NCBI GenBank assembly: GCA_964456225.1 | Contig: CAYWAV010000001.1 | Coordinates: 100,179 to 164,178, forward strand | Length of the DNA: 64,000 nucleotides | From: an uncultured Chitinophaga sp. | GTDB lineage: Bacteria > Bacteroidota > Bacteroidia > 2-12-FULL-35-15 | Direction: 5' to 3' | In this document: piece by piece, positions 12,834 to 29,950 of the stretch | Layout of the letters: the number at the start of each line of letters is the position of its first letter | Position numbering within the stretch: position 1 is the stretch's first letter | Made by a program: the position numbers and the translations under genes | The notes under the pieces: generated by a model | Databases searched by the model: none | Told to the model about the DNA's origin: nothing | The model's input: the letters and a program-made list of their open reading frames with translations, nothing else

Positions 12834-12986
12834 TTAATCGATTAGTTTGGCATCCGGATATTTTTCCTGCCAAGCTTTTAATGCACCCTCTGTCCGAACC
12901 GTAATGGTAGTTCTAGTATCAATTTGTAATTTGAATTTAGGGCGATTATCGATAACTTCTTTTTTGATTTTCATTGTCTTGCTCAT
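12834..12986 (-). CDS. Unannotated 50-aa small protein, paralog of 27888..28046
   Basis: ATG..TAA ORF encoding MSKTMKIKKEVIDNRPKFKLQIDTRTTITVRTEGALKAWQEKYPDAKLID. Aligns without gaps to the second copy, with synonymous differences at conserved residues. Confidence 0.65.
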   Translation of the reverse strand: MSKTMKIKKEVIDNRPKFKLQIDTRTTITVRTEGALKAWQEKYPDAKLID

Positions 12987-25113: not shown

Positions 25114-25210
25114 AATGAGTTCAAAGTCCAAAGTTGGAAAGTTTTGACGATAGAATAATTTGCCCTTTTTTATTGTCACTTTTGTAGCAATGTTTTTTAT
25201 CATTTCTTTG

Positions 25211-25240
25211 ACTTTGAACTTTATAACTTTGAACTTTATA
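25211..25240. repeat. Perfect tandem 15-mer ACTTTGAACTTTATA x2
   Basis: Two identical adjacent units. Their reverse complement matches gttcaaagt at 25119, giving an inverted arrangement across the intergenic spacer. Confidence 0.9.
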
Positions 25241-25249
25241 CTACAAAAA

Positions 25250-26374
25250 ATGTACGAAGAAAAAACAAACGAAGTAAGTAATCAGCTCGACTGCAGAGAT
25301 TGCGGTGCTTTGCTGAAATATGCTCCAGGAACAGAACATTTGAAATGTGAGTATTGCGGTGCGGCTAACGAAATTAAAGAAGCTGTTGAAGCAACGGTTG
25401 TTGAAGAAATAGATTTCGAAAAATTTCTGAACGAGAACAATAGCAATGTTGAAAAACAAGAAGTAACAACAGTGAAGTGTGGAAATTGCGGAGCTTCAAC
25501 TACATTAAAACCAAACATTACATCTGATAGTTGTCCGTTTTGTGCTACACCATTGGTTGTAACAGGCGGAACAACAAACAGTATTATTAAACCAAAATAT
25601 TTATTGCCATTTAAAATCGATCAAAAAAATGCTTTTGAGGAATTTAAAAAGTGGGTGAAAAGTTTATGGTTTGCTCCAAATGATTTGAAGCATTATGTGG
25701 ACAGTGCCGATAAATTAAACGGTATGTATATTCCATATTGGACTTATGATTCCAAAACAGAAAGCGATTATACTGGTCAGCGTGGTGATAATTATGTAAC
25801 AACTGAAACATATACAACAGTTGTAAATGGTAAATCGCAAACGAATACTAGAACGGTAACAAAAATTCGTTGGAGCTATGCTAGCGGACATGTATGCAAT
25901 AATTTCGATGATGTATTGGTATTAGCTAGTAATTCGTTACCAGAAAAATATACAAATGCATTAGAGCCTTGGGATATGGAAAATATTAATGCTTACAACG
26001 ATAAATTTTTAAGTGGATTTAGAACTGAAAGTTATCAAGTAGATGTAAAAACGGGTTTTGAAAAATCAAAAGTTATTATGGATGCTGGTATTCGTTCATC
26101 CATTTGCAGAGATATTGGTGGAGATCATCAACAAATCGCTTCTGTGAGTACGGTTTATAATGATATTACATTCAAACATATTTTATTACCCATTTGGTTG
26201 AGTGCATTTCGTTACAACGAAAAAGTATATCGCTTTATGATTAATGGAAGAACTGGAGAAGTGCAAGGCGAAAGACCATACAGTGTTATCAAAATTGTGT
26301 TGACAGTGTTAGCAGTTATTGCAATAGGAGTAGGCATTTACTTTGCTGTGAGCGCTTATAATGAGGGGAATTAG
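25250..26374 (+). CDS. Double zinc-ribbon protein with C-terminal TM anchor (YdjG-like partner of the SPFH protein)
   Basis: Start chosen at the ATG at 25250 (MYEEK). CRDCG..x..CEYCG and CGNCG..x..CPFC ribbons, and the C-terminal helix VIKIVLTVLAVIAIGVGIYFAV. The track extension from 25160 is repeat-encoded. Confidence 0.7.
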   Translation: MYEEKTNEVSNQLDCRDCGALLKYAPGTEHLKCEYCGAANEIKEAVEATVVEEIDFEKFLNENNSNVEKQEVTTVKCGNCGASTTLKPNITSDSCPFCATPLVVTGGTTNSIIKPKYLLPFKIDQKNAFEEFKKWVKSLWFAPNDLKHYVDSADKLNGMYIPYWTYDSKTESDYTGQRGDNYVTTETYTTVVNGKSQTNTRTVTKIRWSYASGHVCNNFDDVLVLASNSLPEKYTNALEPWDMENINAYNDKFLSGFRTESYQVDVKTGFEKSKVIMDAGIRSSICRDIGGDHQQIASVSTVYNDITFKHILLPIWLSAFRYNEKVYRFMINGRTGEVQGERPYSVIKIVLTVLAVIAIGVGIYFAVSAYNEGN

Positions 26375-26392
26375 TTAATACTGATTTTGTAT

Positions 26393-26431
26393 AAAAAACT
26401 CCTGATTCATAATAGAATCGGGAGTTTTTTT
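26393..26431. terminator. Bidirectional terminator between convergent genes
   Basis: aaaaaactcctgattc-ataata-gaatcgggagttttttt. Confidence 0.8.
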
Positions 26432-26435
26432 AATT

Positions 26436-26720
26436 CTATTCATACAAGCTTAATCTATTCTTCAGTCGAATAATTTCTGTTTGTAGGTCTTCATTCTTTT
26501 TCAAAAGATGAACAACAGCTTCAATTCCTTCCATGTTAATGTCCATTTCATTGTATAGTCGCAGAAGGCGTTCCAGTTTTTGTAGTTCATTCGAATCTAT
26601 GAAGAGCACTTCTTCTAGGGTGGTTAATTCAATCAAACCAAATTCCTTTAGGGAACTGATAAAAGAAATTTCAATCTGATGATTGATGCAAAATTCATTT
26701 GCAGATACTAAATTTTCCAT
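26436..26720 (-). CDS. cbpM: Chaperone modulatory protein CbpM-like (MerR-like fold)
   Basis: 94 aa, placed 4 nt downstream of the cbpA-like gene, with the size and pattern of CbpM. Confidence 0.7.
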   Translation of the reverse strand: MENLVSANEFCINHQIEISFISSLKEFGLIELTTLEEVLFIDSNELQKLERLLRLYNEMDINMEGIEAVVHLLKKNEDLQTEIIRLKNRLSLYE

Positions 26721-26724
26721 AGCT

Positions 26725-27612
26725 CTATGATTTAGATAATTCGGTAAATAGTTCTTTTTGTTTGTCGGTTAAATTCGTAGGGATTTTAATAGAGTAGGTA
26801 ATGTATAAATCTCCAAATTGTGCTTCTTGCTTATAAATGGGAAAGCCTTTTCCTTTCAACTTTACTTTTGTTCCTTGTTGTGTTTCTGGATTGACTTTCA
26901 GTTTTACTTTACTATCAAGGGTGTCAATCGTAATTTCGCCACCCAAAACGGCTTGATATAAATCTAAATCAATAGTCGCGTAAAGATTGTTTCCTTCTCG
27001 TTTAAATTTAGAATTGTTAGTAATTGAAAAGGAAATGTACAAATCTCCGTTAGGGCCGCCATTTGCACCTGGGCTTCCATGACCTGAAATTTTAATAGTT
27101 TGTCCATTTTCTACTCCAGCAGGAATAGTTATGCGAATATTTTTCCCATTTACGGCAAGCGTCTGTTGATGTGTTTTAAATGCATCGGTTAAATTAAGTT
27201 GCAGTTCGGCATTAAAATCTTGCCCACGAAATTTTGTTTGCCGTCCTCCTCTTGAACCATTTCCACCACCAAACATGGAGCTGAAAAATTGGGAGAAATC
27301 TTCTTCATTTGCTCCTTCTTGATAATTTCGACCGGCATAATTACCTTGCTGACTTTGTGCTTTTTGAGCCTTTTCGTATTCCTCACCATGCTTCCACTCT
27401 TTTCCATACTTGTCGTATTTTTTACGATTTTCTGGATCACTCAATACTTCATTGGCTTCATTAATCTGTTGAAAAATTTTATTGGCTTCTTTATCATTCG
27501 GATTAAGGTCAGGATGATGTTTGCGCGCTAATTTTCGATAAGCTTTTTTAATATCCTCAGCAGTGGCATTCTTCGCAAGGCCTAAAATTTTGTAGTAATC
27601 AATAAACTCCAT
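26725..27612 (-). CDS. cbpA: J-domain curved-DNA-binding co-chaperone CbpA/DnaJ-like (no zinc-finger domain)
   Basis: 295 aa. J domain (DYYKILG...HPDLNP), G/F-rich linker and C-terminal DnaJ substrate-binding domains. No CxxCxGxG repeats. Confidence 0.85.
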
Positions 27613-27887
27613 TGTGTCAATTTTGTTTAAAGTTACCTTATTAAGTAAAGCAAGGTCATGATTTCAATCAGTAAAAAATATTTTCTACAATTCGTATTGA
27701 GTAATTTGTCAAATTAATGCGGCTGTGGATTAACTAGCCTATATAATTTCATCTTTTTATTGGAATGCTACACTTTTTACAAAAGGGACATCTTTATTAA
27801 TATGTGAACTATGTAATGTTTTTATAAAAATGTATAACACTTCACCAGCTGAATAGTTTGACATTTGTTTAACAAAATGAGCACGAT

Positions 27888-28046
27888 ATGAAACAGAAAA
27901 TAAAAAAGCTGGAATATGTAAAAAGCACTACAGCCAAATTGATTAAGGTGCAATTGGATTATAGAACTGTAATTTCAATATCCAATATAGAAAAGTTGAA
28001 AGCATGGTTACCCCGATATCCTGAAGCAAAAGTGATTACTGCTTAA
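27888..28046 (+). CDS. Unannotated 52-aa small protein, paralog of 12834..12986
   Basis: ATG..TAA ORF encoding MKQKIKKLEYVKSTTAKLIKVQLDYRTVISISNIEKLKAWLPRYPEAKVITA. Shares Q-[IL]-D-x-R-T-x-I ... LKAW..[KR]YP[DE]AK[LV]I with the other copy. Confidence 0.65.
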   Translation: MKQKIKKLEYVKSTTAKLIKVQLDYRTVISISNIEKLKAWLPRYPEAKVITA

Positions 28047-28164
28047 TAATACCGATAGGGCAGTTGTAATAGTATGATTTCAACAGCCTAAAACAATTGC
28101 GGCATTGGCATTACTCAGAAGCATATTAGTATAATTTATCCCAAATTATTCATTAGAAAAGCTA

Positions 28165-28314
28165 ATGAATAATCGATGTAAGAAAATCAATCCTTTCGTG
28201 GCACAAAAAACTGCACCCGAAAGGTTATTTTGTAAATCGGGATTAATCCACCTAATGCAAGCAGCGCAACAAGTTCATTGCCTTCTATGCATAAGTTGGG
28301 TTTATAATAGATAA
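28165..28314 (+). CDS. Possible 49-aa Cys-containing small ORF (weak)
   Basis: ATG..TAA ORF encoding MNNRCKKINPFVAQKTAPERLFCKSGLIHLMQAAQQVHCLLCISWVYNR. Its ATG lies inside a 9-bp inverted repeat (attcattag/ctaatgaat), so an RNA structure is an alternative reading. Confidence 0.25.
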   Translation: MNNRCKKINPFVAQKTAPERLFCKSGLIHLMQAAQQVHCLLCISWVYNR

Positions 28315-28329
28315 TTGTAAAACAATCCT

Positions 28330-28494
28330 ATGAAACAACAAGCACCAGAAATATTAAGAGAAACAGATGTACTTGGTTTAGAAAAACCAAAAAATCAAAC
28401 AAAACCGAGGAATAGAAAAAGCAATGCCGGGTTTTTAATTTTGACCTTGATACTTTTAATGGCAATTGCAGCTGCATCTTATTACTTTAAATAA
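28330..28494 (+). CDS. Possible 54-aa tail-anchored small membrane protein
   Basis: MKQQAPEILRETDVLGLEKPKNQTKPRNRKSNAGFLILTLILLMAIAAASYYFK has a basic stretch followed by one clear TM helix. Same strand as the two preceding small ORFs. Confidence 0.4.
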   Translation: MKQQAPEILRETDVLGLEKPKNQTKPRNRKSNAGFLILTLILLMAIAAASYYFK

Positions 28495-28549
28495 ATTTGC
28501 ATCCAATTTTTAAGACAAAGTAAGTTAAAAGTCAGTCCAGTTTATGAGC

Positions 28550-29950
28550 CTACAATCCATATTCACTAATCATCCAAATCAAAGCCCCCATTGCTGCTCC
28601 ACCTAATTCAAGTTCACGTTTATTAACTGCTTCAAAAGTGTCAATTGCTGTGTGGTGAAAATCGAAATACCTTTGGGAGTCGGGCATTAATTCAAACACC
28701 GGAGTTTCTAAAGCATCGCGTAAGGGGGCAATATCAGCTCCGCCACCATCATTGTCAAAATCATATACTCCATATGGTAAAAACAAGGGAGCCCAGCTTA
28801 ATAATTTTTTGCGCTGCTCCGGTTTCATTTCATTGCTGAAACCACGCGGAGAAAATCCACCGGCATCCGATTCAATAGCAGCAGTGTGTTTTTCTTTTTT
28901 AAGAACGGCCAGTTCAGCATATTTTTTTCCTCCACGTAATCCATTTTCTTCATTCATAAATGCAACAGCACGAATGGTGCGCTTGGGTTTTAATCCCAAT
29001 GCTTTATAGATGCGTAATACTTCTATGCTTTGAACTATGCCCGCTCCGTCATCATGAGCTCCTTCACCATTGTCCCATGCATCCAAATGTCCGCCAACGG
29101 TAATGATTTCATCCTTTTTTTCTGAGCCATAAATTTCTCCCACAACATTGTAAGATTTTTCTTCTGGAAGAAATTTGCAACTCATTTTCAAATAAAATTT
29201 CAACTCTTTATCTGTTTTTAAATAGCTACTTAACCAATTTGCTGCGTTTGTACTTATAGCACATGCAGGAATTTTATTCAAACTATCTTTATAACCCATT
29301 GAACCTGTATGAGGGTTGTCATCCTGCGCCATTGTAAGAGAACGAACCACCACTGCAACAGCTCCAAATTTAACAGCCTCCGAAGCACCAGCCCAACGTT
29401 GCATTACGGCTCCTCCATACGAACGAAATGTTTCGATGTTAGTTGGATCCATTGGTTTGTTGAAGAATACAATTTTACCTTCAATTTTTTCTTTGCCCAG
29501 TTTTTCTAACTCTTCAATTCCAAACACTTCAATTACCTGAGCTGTAATTCCATCAGCAGGAGTGCCAACCGAATTTCCTAATGCACAAATAGGAACTTCT
29601 TTAATTCCTTTTCCGCCTGTTGAAATAACTTTTCCAACTTCTTTTTCGCCACGTACCCAATGTGGAACCATGCATTCTTGTAAATAAACAGTGTCGGCTC
29701 CCGCTTCTTTCATGGTTTTGAAAGTCCATTCTACCGCTTGTTGTGCTTGTGGAGAACCTGCTAGTCGACCGCCAATTTTTTTACACAAGTAGTTTAGATT
29801 GGAATAACTTTTTCCATTCGTTAAAGCTTCGTTGTATATTTTTTTGAAAATGGCAGAATCGGTTTGAGAATAACCATTTGTTGCAAATAGCAAAAGAATT
29901 GAGAGCGTAATTGTACTTTTCATTTTGCATGTTTTTATTTCAAATTTCAT
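28550..29950 (-). CDS. M28 family metallopeptidase (aminopeptidase with PA-like insert)
   Basis: 466 aa with a signal peptide and zinc-ligand block GGHLDAWDNGEGAHDDGAG ... FMNEENG. Confidence 0.85.
   Translation of the reverse strand: MKFEIKTCKMKSTITLSILLLFATNGYSQTDSAIFKKIYNEALTNGKSYSNLNYLCKKIGGRLAGSPQAQQAVEWTFKTMKEAGADTVYLQECMVPHWVRGEKEVGKVISTGGKGIKEVPICALGNSVGTPADGITAQVIEVFGIEELEKLGKEKIEGKIVFFNKPMDPTNIETFRSYGGAVMQRWAGASEAVKFGAVAVVVRSLTMAQDDNPHTGSMGYKDSLNKIPACAISTNAANWLSSYLKTDKELKFYLKMSCKFLPEEKSYNVVGEIYGSEKKDEIITVGGHLDAWDNGEGAHDDGAGIVQSIEVLRIYKALGLKPKRTIRAVAFMNEENGLRGGKKYAELAVLKKEKHTAAIESDAGGFSPRGFSNEMKPEQRKKLLSWAPLFLPYGVYDFDNDGGGADIAPLRDALETPVFELMPDSQRYFDFHHTAIDTFEAVNKRELELGGAAMGALIWMISEYGL

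Follow-up and report, generated by a model that had tools for sequence, protein, structure and literature searches.

A small-protein gene pair probably split by two nested repeats, one of them MITE-like, beside cbpA in an uncultured Chitinophaga

What occupies the long interval between a cbpA-like gene and an M28 peptidase gene in this uncultured Chitinophaga? Both flanking genes carry Pfam labels, as does a MerR_2 partner beyond the cbpA-like gene, and from 27613 to 28549 no open reading frame of at least 60 aa intervenes. When the intervals between stop-to-stop frames of 100 aa or more are ranked, this gap (886 nt) is the widest in the window, by which we mean the whole 64,000-nt stretch of DNA analyzed; the runner-up, which houses a clpB-adjacent paralogue of ORF1, measures 556 nt, and the median is 58 nt. 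A preliminary description had remarked on the unusual length of the ORF-free gap and had read three plus-strand ORFs in it, and both observations are borne out, the second down to the exact coordinates (Table 1). It went on to propose either a small-protein operon or a structured ncRNA over 28050–28330, and held that known features account for neither reading. The arrangement that we favor, at a probability of roughly 0.8, is a two-gene cassette, ORF1–ORF3, that was split by nested insertions, first of a repeat here termed element A and then of a second, element B, with ORF2 as a spurious frame. The operon proposal thus holds for ORF1 and ORF3, which form a conserved adjacent pair in relatives, but not for ORF2, which lies inside a dispersed repeat and whose frame is broken in the other copies. 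Likewise, 28050–28330 is indeed strongly structured, but its structure is that of two inserted repeats, one of them with a target-site duplication and an empty site, not that of an RNA gene specific to the locus. To say that known features explain neither reading was too strong, because element B fits a known kind of element, the MITE.

Table 1. Coordinates of the genes, repeats and motifs in and around the gap, with the further copies of element B in the same genome
Feature	Position	Strand	Remarks
cbpA (DnaJ/DnaJ_C protein, cbpA-like)	26725-27612	-	Pfam labels
Conserved block ATATGTGAACTATGTAATGTTTT	27800-27823	+	5' of ORF1; identical in L036 (Logan relative), similar in L037 and G042
ORF1	27888-28046	+	52 aa, basic small protein; uncharacterised family, open frames across the genus
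Element A, left part	28047-28139	+	hairpin with 15-bp arms, 28052-28066 with 28094-28108
TTTAT, left target-site copy	28135-28139	+	last 5 nt of A left part; target site of B
Element B	28140-28300	+	161 nt, MITE-like structured repeat; TIRs CCCAAATTATTCA ... TGCATAAGTTGGG
Helix 1 of element B	28145-28173	+	arms 28145-28156 / 28162-28173, 12 bp, 100% complementary, 5-nt loop
ORF2	28165-28314	+	49 aa; read as a chance frame overlapping element B
TTTAT, second target-site copy	28301-28305	+	identical to 28135-28139
Element A, right part	28306-28329	+	resumes 3' of B, ends at the ORF3 start codon
ORF3	28330-28494	+	54 aa, hydrophilic N-terminus and one predicted C-terminal TM helix; homologues directly 3' of ORF1 homologues
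M28 peptidase	28550-29950	-	Pfam labels
Element B copy C20			89% identity; ORF2 frame split between frames (tblastn)
Element B copy C73			90% identity; ORF2 frame with stops (tblastn)
Element B copy C29			82% identity; ORF2 frame with stops (tblastn)
Element B copy C135			80% identity, partial; ORF2 frame with stops (tblastn)

Judged from sequence, ORF1 and ORF3 are real genes, the latter with a predicted tail-anchored topology. The family of ORF1, which shares the core motif KVQLDxRTxITI..IEKLKxWLxRYPxAKVI, is found as open frames in 57 of 68 genomes of the genus. In a library of 1.8 billion proteins it forms 241 clusters at 50% identity, nearly all of 40–120 aa and with the domain at the C-terminus. 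Changes in ORF1 fall mostly on third codon positions (13/4/25 over the three positions), with 24 synonymous against 8 non-synonymous. Its paralogy with the clpB-adjacent ORF (12834–12986, minus strand), already suspected in the preliminary description, is supported by a tblastn match of 48% over 31 aa (E 4e-5). An AF2 model of ORF1 adopts a beta-beta-alpha-beta arrangement (pLDDT 73); a Foldseek search with this model returned no match below E 0.8, and a profile search of the PDB likewise stayed at chance level. Neither ORF1 nor ORF3 has a relative above cut-offs in Pfam, NCBIfam, PADLOC, PHROGs or the PDB, and the longer members of the ORF1 family are without any Pfam domain. In one member (P0146) the domain is fused to a Lys/Ala/Pro-rich, histone-H1-like tail, a weak hint that the family may bind nucleic acid.

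ORF3 is best conserved in its hydrophilic part. The N-terminus (MKQQAPEILRExDVLGLEKP) recurs among homologues, and in the alignment the region of P6, E7, I8, D13, V14, G16, K19 and P20 is more conserved than the TM segment. Clear homologues with open frames occur in two of the 68 genomes searched (G042 and G065), and a large protein collection adds four from metagenomes, at 62–74% identity; ten ORF1 homologues in the same collection lie on contigs that match those of the ORF3 homologues in size. The third-position bias of ORF3 is moderate and weaker than that of ORF1 (e.g., 14/8/24), and comparison of the window ORF3 with its G042 homologue counts 8 synonymous and 22 non-synonymous changes. 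Conceivably, ORF3 has been somewhat relaxed after its uncoupling from ORF1. Coding conservation confined to ORF1, which the preliminary description had named as adverse to its proposal, is nonetheless not what is seen: ORF3, too, exhibits coding-type substitutions and conserved residues.

What the gap once looked like is indicated by relatives in which the two genes are neighbors. The ORF1–ORF3 pair is found with a spacer of merely 9–12 nt at no fewer than six related loci (G042, G065, L036, L037, L048 and the P0002 contig), for instance 12 nt in G042 and 9 nt in G065; on the P0002 contig, from ENA, the genes lie at 189–341 and 352–513. In the window, by comparison, the spacer is 283 nt (28047–28329), a separation that we attribute to the insertion of two repeats. 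Element A is absent from the 9–12-nt spacer of the relatives. At such a distance the pair in the relatives leaves no room for a middle gene. What emerges is a previously unannotated two-gene small-protein cassette in Chitinophaga-like Bacteroidia. The pairing is not obligatory: ORF1 stands without ORF3 in L046, in L049 and in the clpB-adjacent paralogue of the window, and in L047 it is followed by an N-terminally shortened ORF3 of 35 aa. L036 carries a second, diverged ORF1–ORF3 cassette in tandem.

The surroundings of the cassette are partly constant and partly not. Two Logan contigs preserve the same order, namely an SPFH protein, a Zn-ribbon protein, ORF1, ORF3, the M28 peptidase (minus strand), a DciA-like protein and RecF, while in L048, a permafrost MAG, the pair adjoins a UspA-like gene, as it does in G065. 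The interval from the Zn-ribbon gene to the M28 gene contains ORF1–ORF3 and nothing else in G042 and L037, two cassettes in L036, cbpM–cbpA with a TlpA-like thioredoxin gene and no cassette in G008, and cbpM–cbpA together with the split cassette in the species of the window. Since its content differs so among relatives, the placement of ORF1 beside cbpA is specific to the lineage of the window. The TlpA-like gene, which occupies the same gap in G008, was also considered as the source of a remnant here, and was rejected as no similarity was found. Neighbors at this putative hot spot comprise SPFH, Zn-ribbon, cbpM–cbpA and UspA.

The stretch that contains ORF2 behaves in an entirely different manner. 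A search of the 4.1-Mb assembly from which the window derives revealed it to be a dispersed repeat with four further copies (Table 1). The ORF2 frame is broken in all four, so the four cysteines that lend ORF2 its appeal are an accident of one copy. Because ORF2 sits in element B and its frame is broken elsewhere, it is a chance frame and not a gene. Congruent with this, a family search with ORF2 gave no match of any weight; a Pfam Sprouty match (E 0.02, below cut-off) was set aside as a match of cysteine composition. A tempting mis-annotation is thus corrected, in that a putative Cys-rich small protein is reassigned to a frame in a transposon relic.

How element B arrived can be read from its borders. 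The repeat that surrounds it, element A, totals ~117 nt (28047–28139 plus 28306–28329) and has three copies in the genome. One of these (C130:1536–1650; 79% identity, nhmmer E 3e-29) lies between two co-directional genes, and another (C13:55369–55501; E 9e-5) lies upstream of a permease gene; all three directly precede a gene start. The hairpin arms of A vary among the three copies yet stay complementary through compensatory changes. In the C130 copy, ...GATAATTTAT is followed immediately by AATAACTAATGG..., with one TTTAT and without B. In the window, ...ATAATTTAT is followed by B, a TTTAT and then AATAGATAATTG..., and homology to C130 picks up after this second TTTAT, from which it follows that A was the target of B and that the insertion duplicated 5 bp. 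This empty site is a paralogous rather than an orthologous one, being another copy of A at 79% identity. Once B is removed in silico, the right part of A matches C130 at 19 of 27 positions, in an alignment that reaches the start codon of the gene that follows.

Other copies of B bear the same signature. The 5-mers to the left and right of B are identical in 20 of 26 copies (9 genomes) and differ from copy to copy: TTTAA, TTAAA, TTTAT, TTTAG, GTTAT, CTAAT and TTAAT in one set of copies (A10) and ATAAA in another (A9). Even near-identical copies within G124 have different duplications (GTTAT, CTAAT and TTAAT). The preferred target is an AT-rich 5 bp with a TTTAA-like consensus. All five copies in the genome of the window are intergenic; divergent genes flank three of them. 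A covariance model built from B copies (R1) finds the element in 9 of the 68 genomes of the genus, with 23 copies in G003 and 5 in the genome of the window; in G042 and G065 it detects no copy. Of 201 genomes sampled across the class, the model detects B in 17; these represent 15 of 121 genera and no fewer than 12 families, and several of them hold at least 13 copies each. One carrier is the complete 4.43-Mb genome G192, where the terminal motif occurs 239 times in forward and 236 times in reverse orientation (12 and 8 for the control), corresponding to ~230 copies. The plasmid and phage collections searched contain no B-like sequence.

Copies of B are all 156–191 nt long and end in TIRs of ~14 nt (13–14 nt in an alignment of the copies from the window's genome, G003 and G028). 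The 5' end CCCAAAYTATKCA and the 3' end TGCATAAGTTGGG are matched at 10–12 of 13 positions; a subfamily in G003 ends in CCCTAAATAGGCAG and CTGTCTAATTGCGG. The end motif also occurs a third time inside the element, where it pairs with the 3' terminus. The 9-bp inverted repeat that the preliminary description placed at the ATG of ORF2 is real, with the ATG (28165–28167) in its 3' arm, but its arms extend to 12 nt and its positions are shifted by one base; it constitutes helix 1 of B. Across copies, 6–8 of the 9 modelled pairs of this helix exhibit compensatory changes. Over the whole element, double-sided changes are found in 34–38 of 52 pairs, and entire helices swap their sequences between subfamilies. 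In the alignments 90–91% of cells are paired, versus 70–72% for shuffles and 28–45% for slid controls. Between the helices run conserved single-stranded linkers (ACGAT-TAAG, TAAATCGGGAT and ATAGYKC). One strand has a fold z-score of -5.1 and the other of -5.3; counts of G-U against A-C combinations are 21 vs 38 and 25 vs 25. The two kinds of combination are similarly numerous and neither strand folds better than the other, so the constraint does not single out one RNA strand. Covariation over 28050–28330, raised earlier as a sign of an ncRNA, is thus present insofar as the fold of B is kept by compensation among its copies, but these copies are repeats and show no strand asymmetry.

What kind of element, then, is B? 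It fits a MITE-like non-autonomous element and displays four of five defining features, being short and non-coding, bounded by TIRs, flanked by target-site duplications with an empty site, and dispersed in patchily distributed copies. Bacterial MITEs include the Correia elements of Neisseria and the MITEs of Porphyromonas gingivalis (PMC4596501, PMC2575886), the latter being the named Bacteroidota MITEs that we found in the literature. Like both, B (~160–175 nt) is non-coding and intergenic, with TIRs, target-site duplications, variable copy number and strong predicted hairpins. Correia elements duplicate TA, in contrast to the 5 bp that B duplicates at TTTAA-like sites. B further departs from the named MITEs in a multi-helix fold kept by compensation across at least 12 Bacteroidia families; no parent IS is known for it, and no sequence relation to them has emerged. 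The family may already be present, unnamed, in a bulk MITE catalogue, because one released as a 2024 preprint includes Bacteroidota.

A fifth feature of MITEs is an autonomous IS that shares their termini and supplies the transposase; in the genomes scanned, no transposase or autonomous element with the termini of B was found. Paired copies of B in G023 and G003 enclose ordinary genes and no IS, G000 contains no B-type TIR pair 0.6–3.5 kb apart with a duplication, and no IS-sized pair is evident in G003. Three candidate origins were weighed. IS1380 elements, by their ISfinder family traits, make 4–5-bp duplications at AT-rich targets and have ends that begin with CC; B resembles them, as it does TIMEs, in its 5-bp duplication, and its target is AT-rich too. 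However, the transposase model NF033539 was detected in G124 only among eight B-carrying genomes and is absent even from the genome with ~230 copies, and the single full IS1380 copy, in G124, lacks B-type termini. Tn3-derived TIMEs also make 5-bp duplications, and this is the one feature that fits: Tn3-type ends are ~38 bp long and start with GGGG, whereas those of B are ~14 nt long and start with CCC. Derivation from IS200/IS605, as a PATE or REP element, is the third. Such PATEs and REP/RAYT elements resemble B in that near its ends hairpin structure rather than sequence is conserved, with no strand asymmetry, a combination that would suit recognition as single-stranded DNA. They make no target-site duplication, and the clear 5-bp duplication of B speaks against this origin. 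Both R1 and the TIR pattern can now serve to mask and annotate the repeats and to hunt for the transposase of B.

These observations can be assembled into a sequence of events. The ancestral gap would have contained ORF1, encoding a basic, soluble protein, followed 9–12 nt later by ORF3, encoding a tail-anchored membrane protein, and the two were probably co-transcribed and translated as a unit. Element A, a hairpin-bearing intergenic repeat of ~117 nt, would have entered the 9–12-nt spacer first. Element B would then have jumped into a TTTAT in the 3' part of A, duplicating these 5 bp, a jump for which a DDE-type transposase presumably acted in trans; in the predicted multi-helix fold of B both termini are paired with complementary copies inside the element. 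As for the proteins, we tentatively suppose that ORF1 might be a regulator that binds nucleic acid or a partner, working at the membrane with the cytoplasmic N-terminus of ORF3 or tethered there by it. Two strong hairpins would now stand between the cistrons and may uncouple the expression of ORF1 and ORF3. The locus thus offers a ready-made natural comparison for asking whether the pair needs tight coupling.

Compatible with this insertion history is the possibility that the A+B block has since been co-opted as a regulatory spacer, whether an attenuator, a processing or stability hairpin, or an outward promoter, with ORF3 expressed separately. Both ORFs are intact, and metagenome contigs of the species have the same 283-nt spacer, in an identical arrangement across 16 contigs from several samples. 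In addition, A directly precedes a gene start in each of its three copies, and the predicted hairpins of A (-21 kcal/mol) and B (-48 kcal/mol) are stable. On the other hand, neither a T-run terminator nor a canonical -33/-7 promoter is present in the insert, and the 16 contigs all belong to one species, so the intactness of the ORFs says little about selection. We hold such co-option to be unlikely. In line with the paucity of signals in the insert, scans for sigma-70 promoters and intrinsic terminators gave nothing beyond chance level, the canonical Bacteroidota -7 box (TAnnTTTG) is absent throughout 26871–28435, and inspection by eye revealed no sigma-54 motifs with correct spacing. The conserved block upstream of ORF1 is a possible regulatory site.

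A more ambitious reading takes the conservation of the B fold at face value. The preservation of the helices, together with their swaps, exceeds what a decaying MITE needs, and there could be a function at the RNA level. B might then be a class-wide mobile element with a selected three-domain fold, serving either a transposase that reads hairpins or as regulatory modules in RNA or DNA, and ORF1–ORF3 would be a new module of membrane-tethered small proteins, located in a hot spot that is variable and rich in stress genes. We consider this combination improbable, about as much so as co-option of the spacer.

Further still from the favored reading is the proposal that B is primarily a functional structured RNA, a multi-copy sRNA or a cis-regulatory element, whose mobility is secondary or achieved by another route. 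Strong covariation over nine genomes, complete helix swaps that keep pairing, a fold z-score of about -5 and the conserved single-stranded linkers are what one would expect of such an RNA. Against it stand the target-site duplications and the empty site, a copy number that ranges from 0 to ~230 with no synteny, and the lack of strand asymmetry in G-U and A-C counts in an element whose strands fold equally well. Moreover, Rfam covariance models run on the gap gave no match at the gathering score and, up to E 10, only chance-level miRNA and snoRNA matches. A primary role as an RNA thus seems quite unlikely.

Similarly doubtful is the notion that ORF1–ORF3 is a toxin–antitoxin-like module in which ORF3 would be a small peptide that damages the membrane and ORF1 the protein that neutralizes or represses it. 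The type V system GhoS/GhoT and the small membrane regulators of E. coli likewise comprise two tiny adjacent genes, the second of ~50 aa with one TM helix, a likeness that is architectural only, given that ORF1 and ORF3 have no sequence or fold similarity to them. The tiny spacer of this two-gene module, its tandem duplicate in L036, its confinement to few lineages (3–4 of 68 genomes) and the short, hydrophobic, tail-anchored second product would all accord with such a role. Conversely, almost all genomes of the genus carry the ORF1 family, for the most part with no ORF3, PADLOC and PHROGs provide no match, and ORF3 differs from typical type I toxins in its conserved, specific and hydrophilic N-terminus.

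That all three frames, including the Cys-rich 49-aa ORF2, form one operon of co-directional small protein genes deserves almost no credence: the frames are open and on the same strand, and ORF2 has its four cysteines, but these points yield to a frame broken in every other genomic copy, to relatives in which ORF1 and ORF3 lie too close for a middle gene, and to a sole weak Pfam match that is compositional.

The B family, MITEs with an unusually well preserved fold and duplications of 5 bp, also leaves its mark on sequence data, in that it fragments metagenome assemblies. Several short metagenome contigs of the window's species begin ~170 nt upstream of ORF3, inside B, as is expected because B is multi-copy.

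Element A, the hairpin repeat of about 117 nt between ORF1 and ORF3, is a low-copy repeat in its own right. Besides the window copy, two more are present in the same genome (see table), and all three stop just short of a gene start. The element carries a long hairpin, whose pairing is compensated between copies. A BLAST comparison with 40 relatives revealed no copies of element A.

The MITE-like element B, inserted inside element A, can be abundant. In G192:C1, a complete 4.43-Mb genome from a different family of the same class, its terminal motif occurs 239 + 236 times compared to 12 + 8 for a control, which corresponds to some 230 copies making up about 0.8% of the genome. This repeat breaks short-read assemblies at the site upstream of ORF3: four same-species Logan contigs (L040, L042–L044) all start inside element B, 170–172 nt upstream of ORF3. 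In G028, three copies of element B share an identical extra 19-nt hairpin insert, ATACCCGAAAAGGGCATAA, at the same internal position, and one of the three bears an additional second insert, TACCCATGGGCACAAG. These inserts look like even smaller nested insertions. In G003, two left-end motifs of element B point towards each other inside a 45-nt span, an arrangement that might represent either a minimal end-to-end palindrome or some deletion derivative.

Between the Zn-ribbon gene and the M28 peptidase lies a variable hot spot. Comparison of the window with L016 (from G008), L025 (from G042), and the Logan contigs L036 and L037 showed that its content varies by species, made up variously of cbpM-cbpA, a TlpA-like thioredoxin gene, and either a single ORF1–ORF3 cassette or two of them. 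The second cassette of L036 (SRR10211375_881) is diverged and lies in tandem downstream of the first; ORF1 and ORF3 were duplicated together there as one unit.

Coordinates of the compared interval, repeats, and associated features
Feature	Location	Coordinates	Details
Zn-ribbon gene to M28 peptidase	window	25160-28550	
Upstream block	window	27800-27823	
Second ORF1–ORF3 cassette	L036	4500-4865	genes of 43 and 48 aa, separated by 87 nt
Element A copy	C130	1536-1650	
Element A copy	C13	55369-55501	
Element B copy	L018 (G028)	244-434	
Element B copy	L021 (G028)	170-375	
Element B copy	L020 (G028)		
Facing element B left ends	G003:C19	36933-36977	

Within the ORF1 family, the domain of P0146 (174 aa) terminates a long Lys/Ala/Pro-rich, histone-H1-like tail, a composition that hints at possible nucleic-acid binding. 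The gap between cbpA and the M28 peptidase contains no canonical Bacteroidota promoter box. L036 has an identical copy of the block ATATGTGAACTATGTAATGTTTT that lies upstream of ORF1, and L037 and G042 have similar ones.
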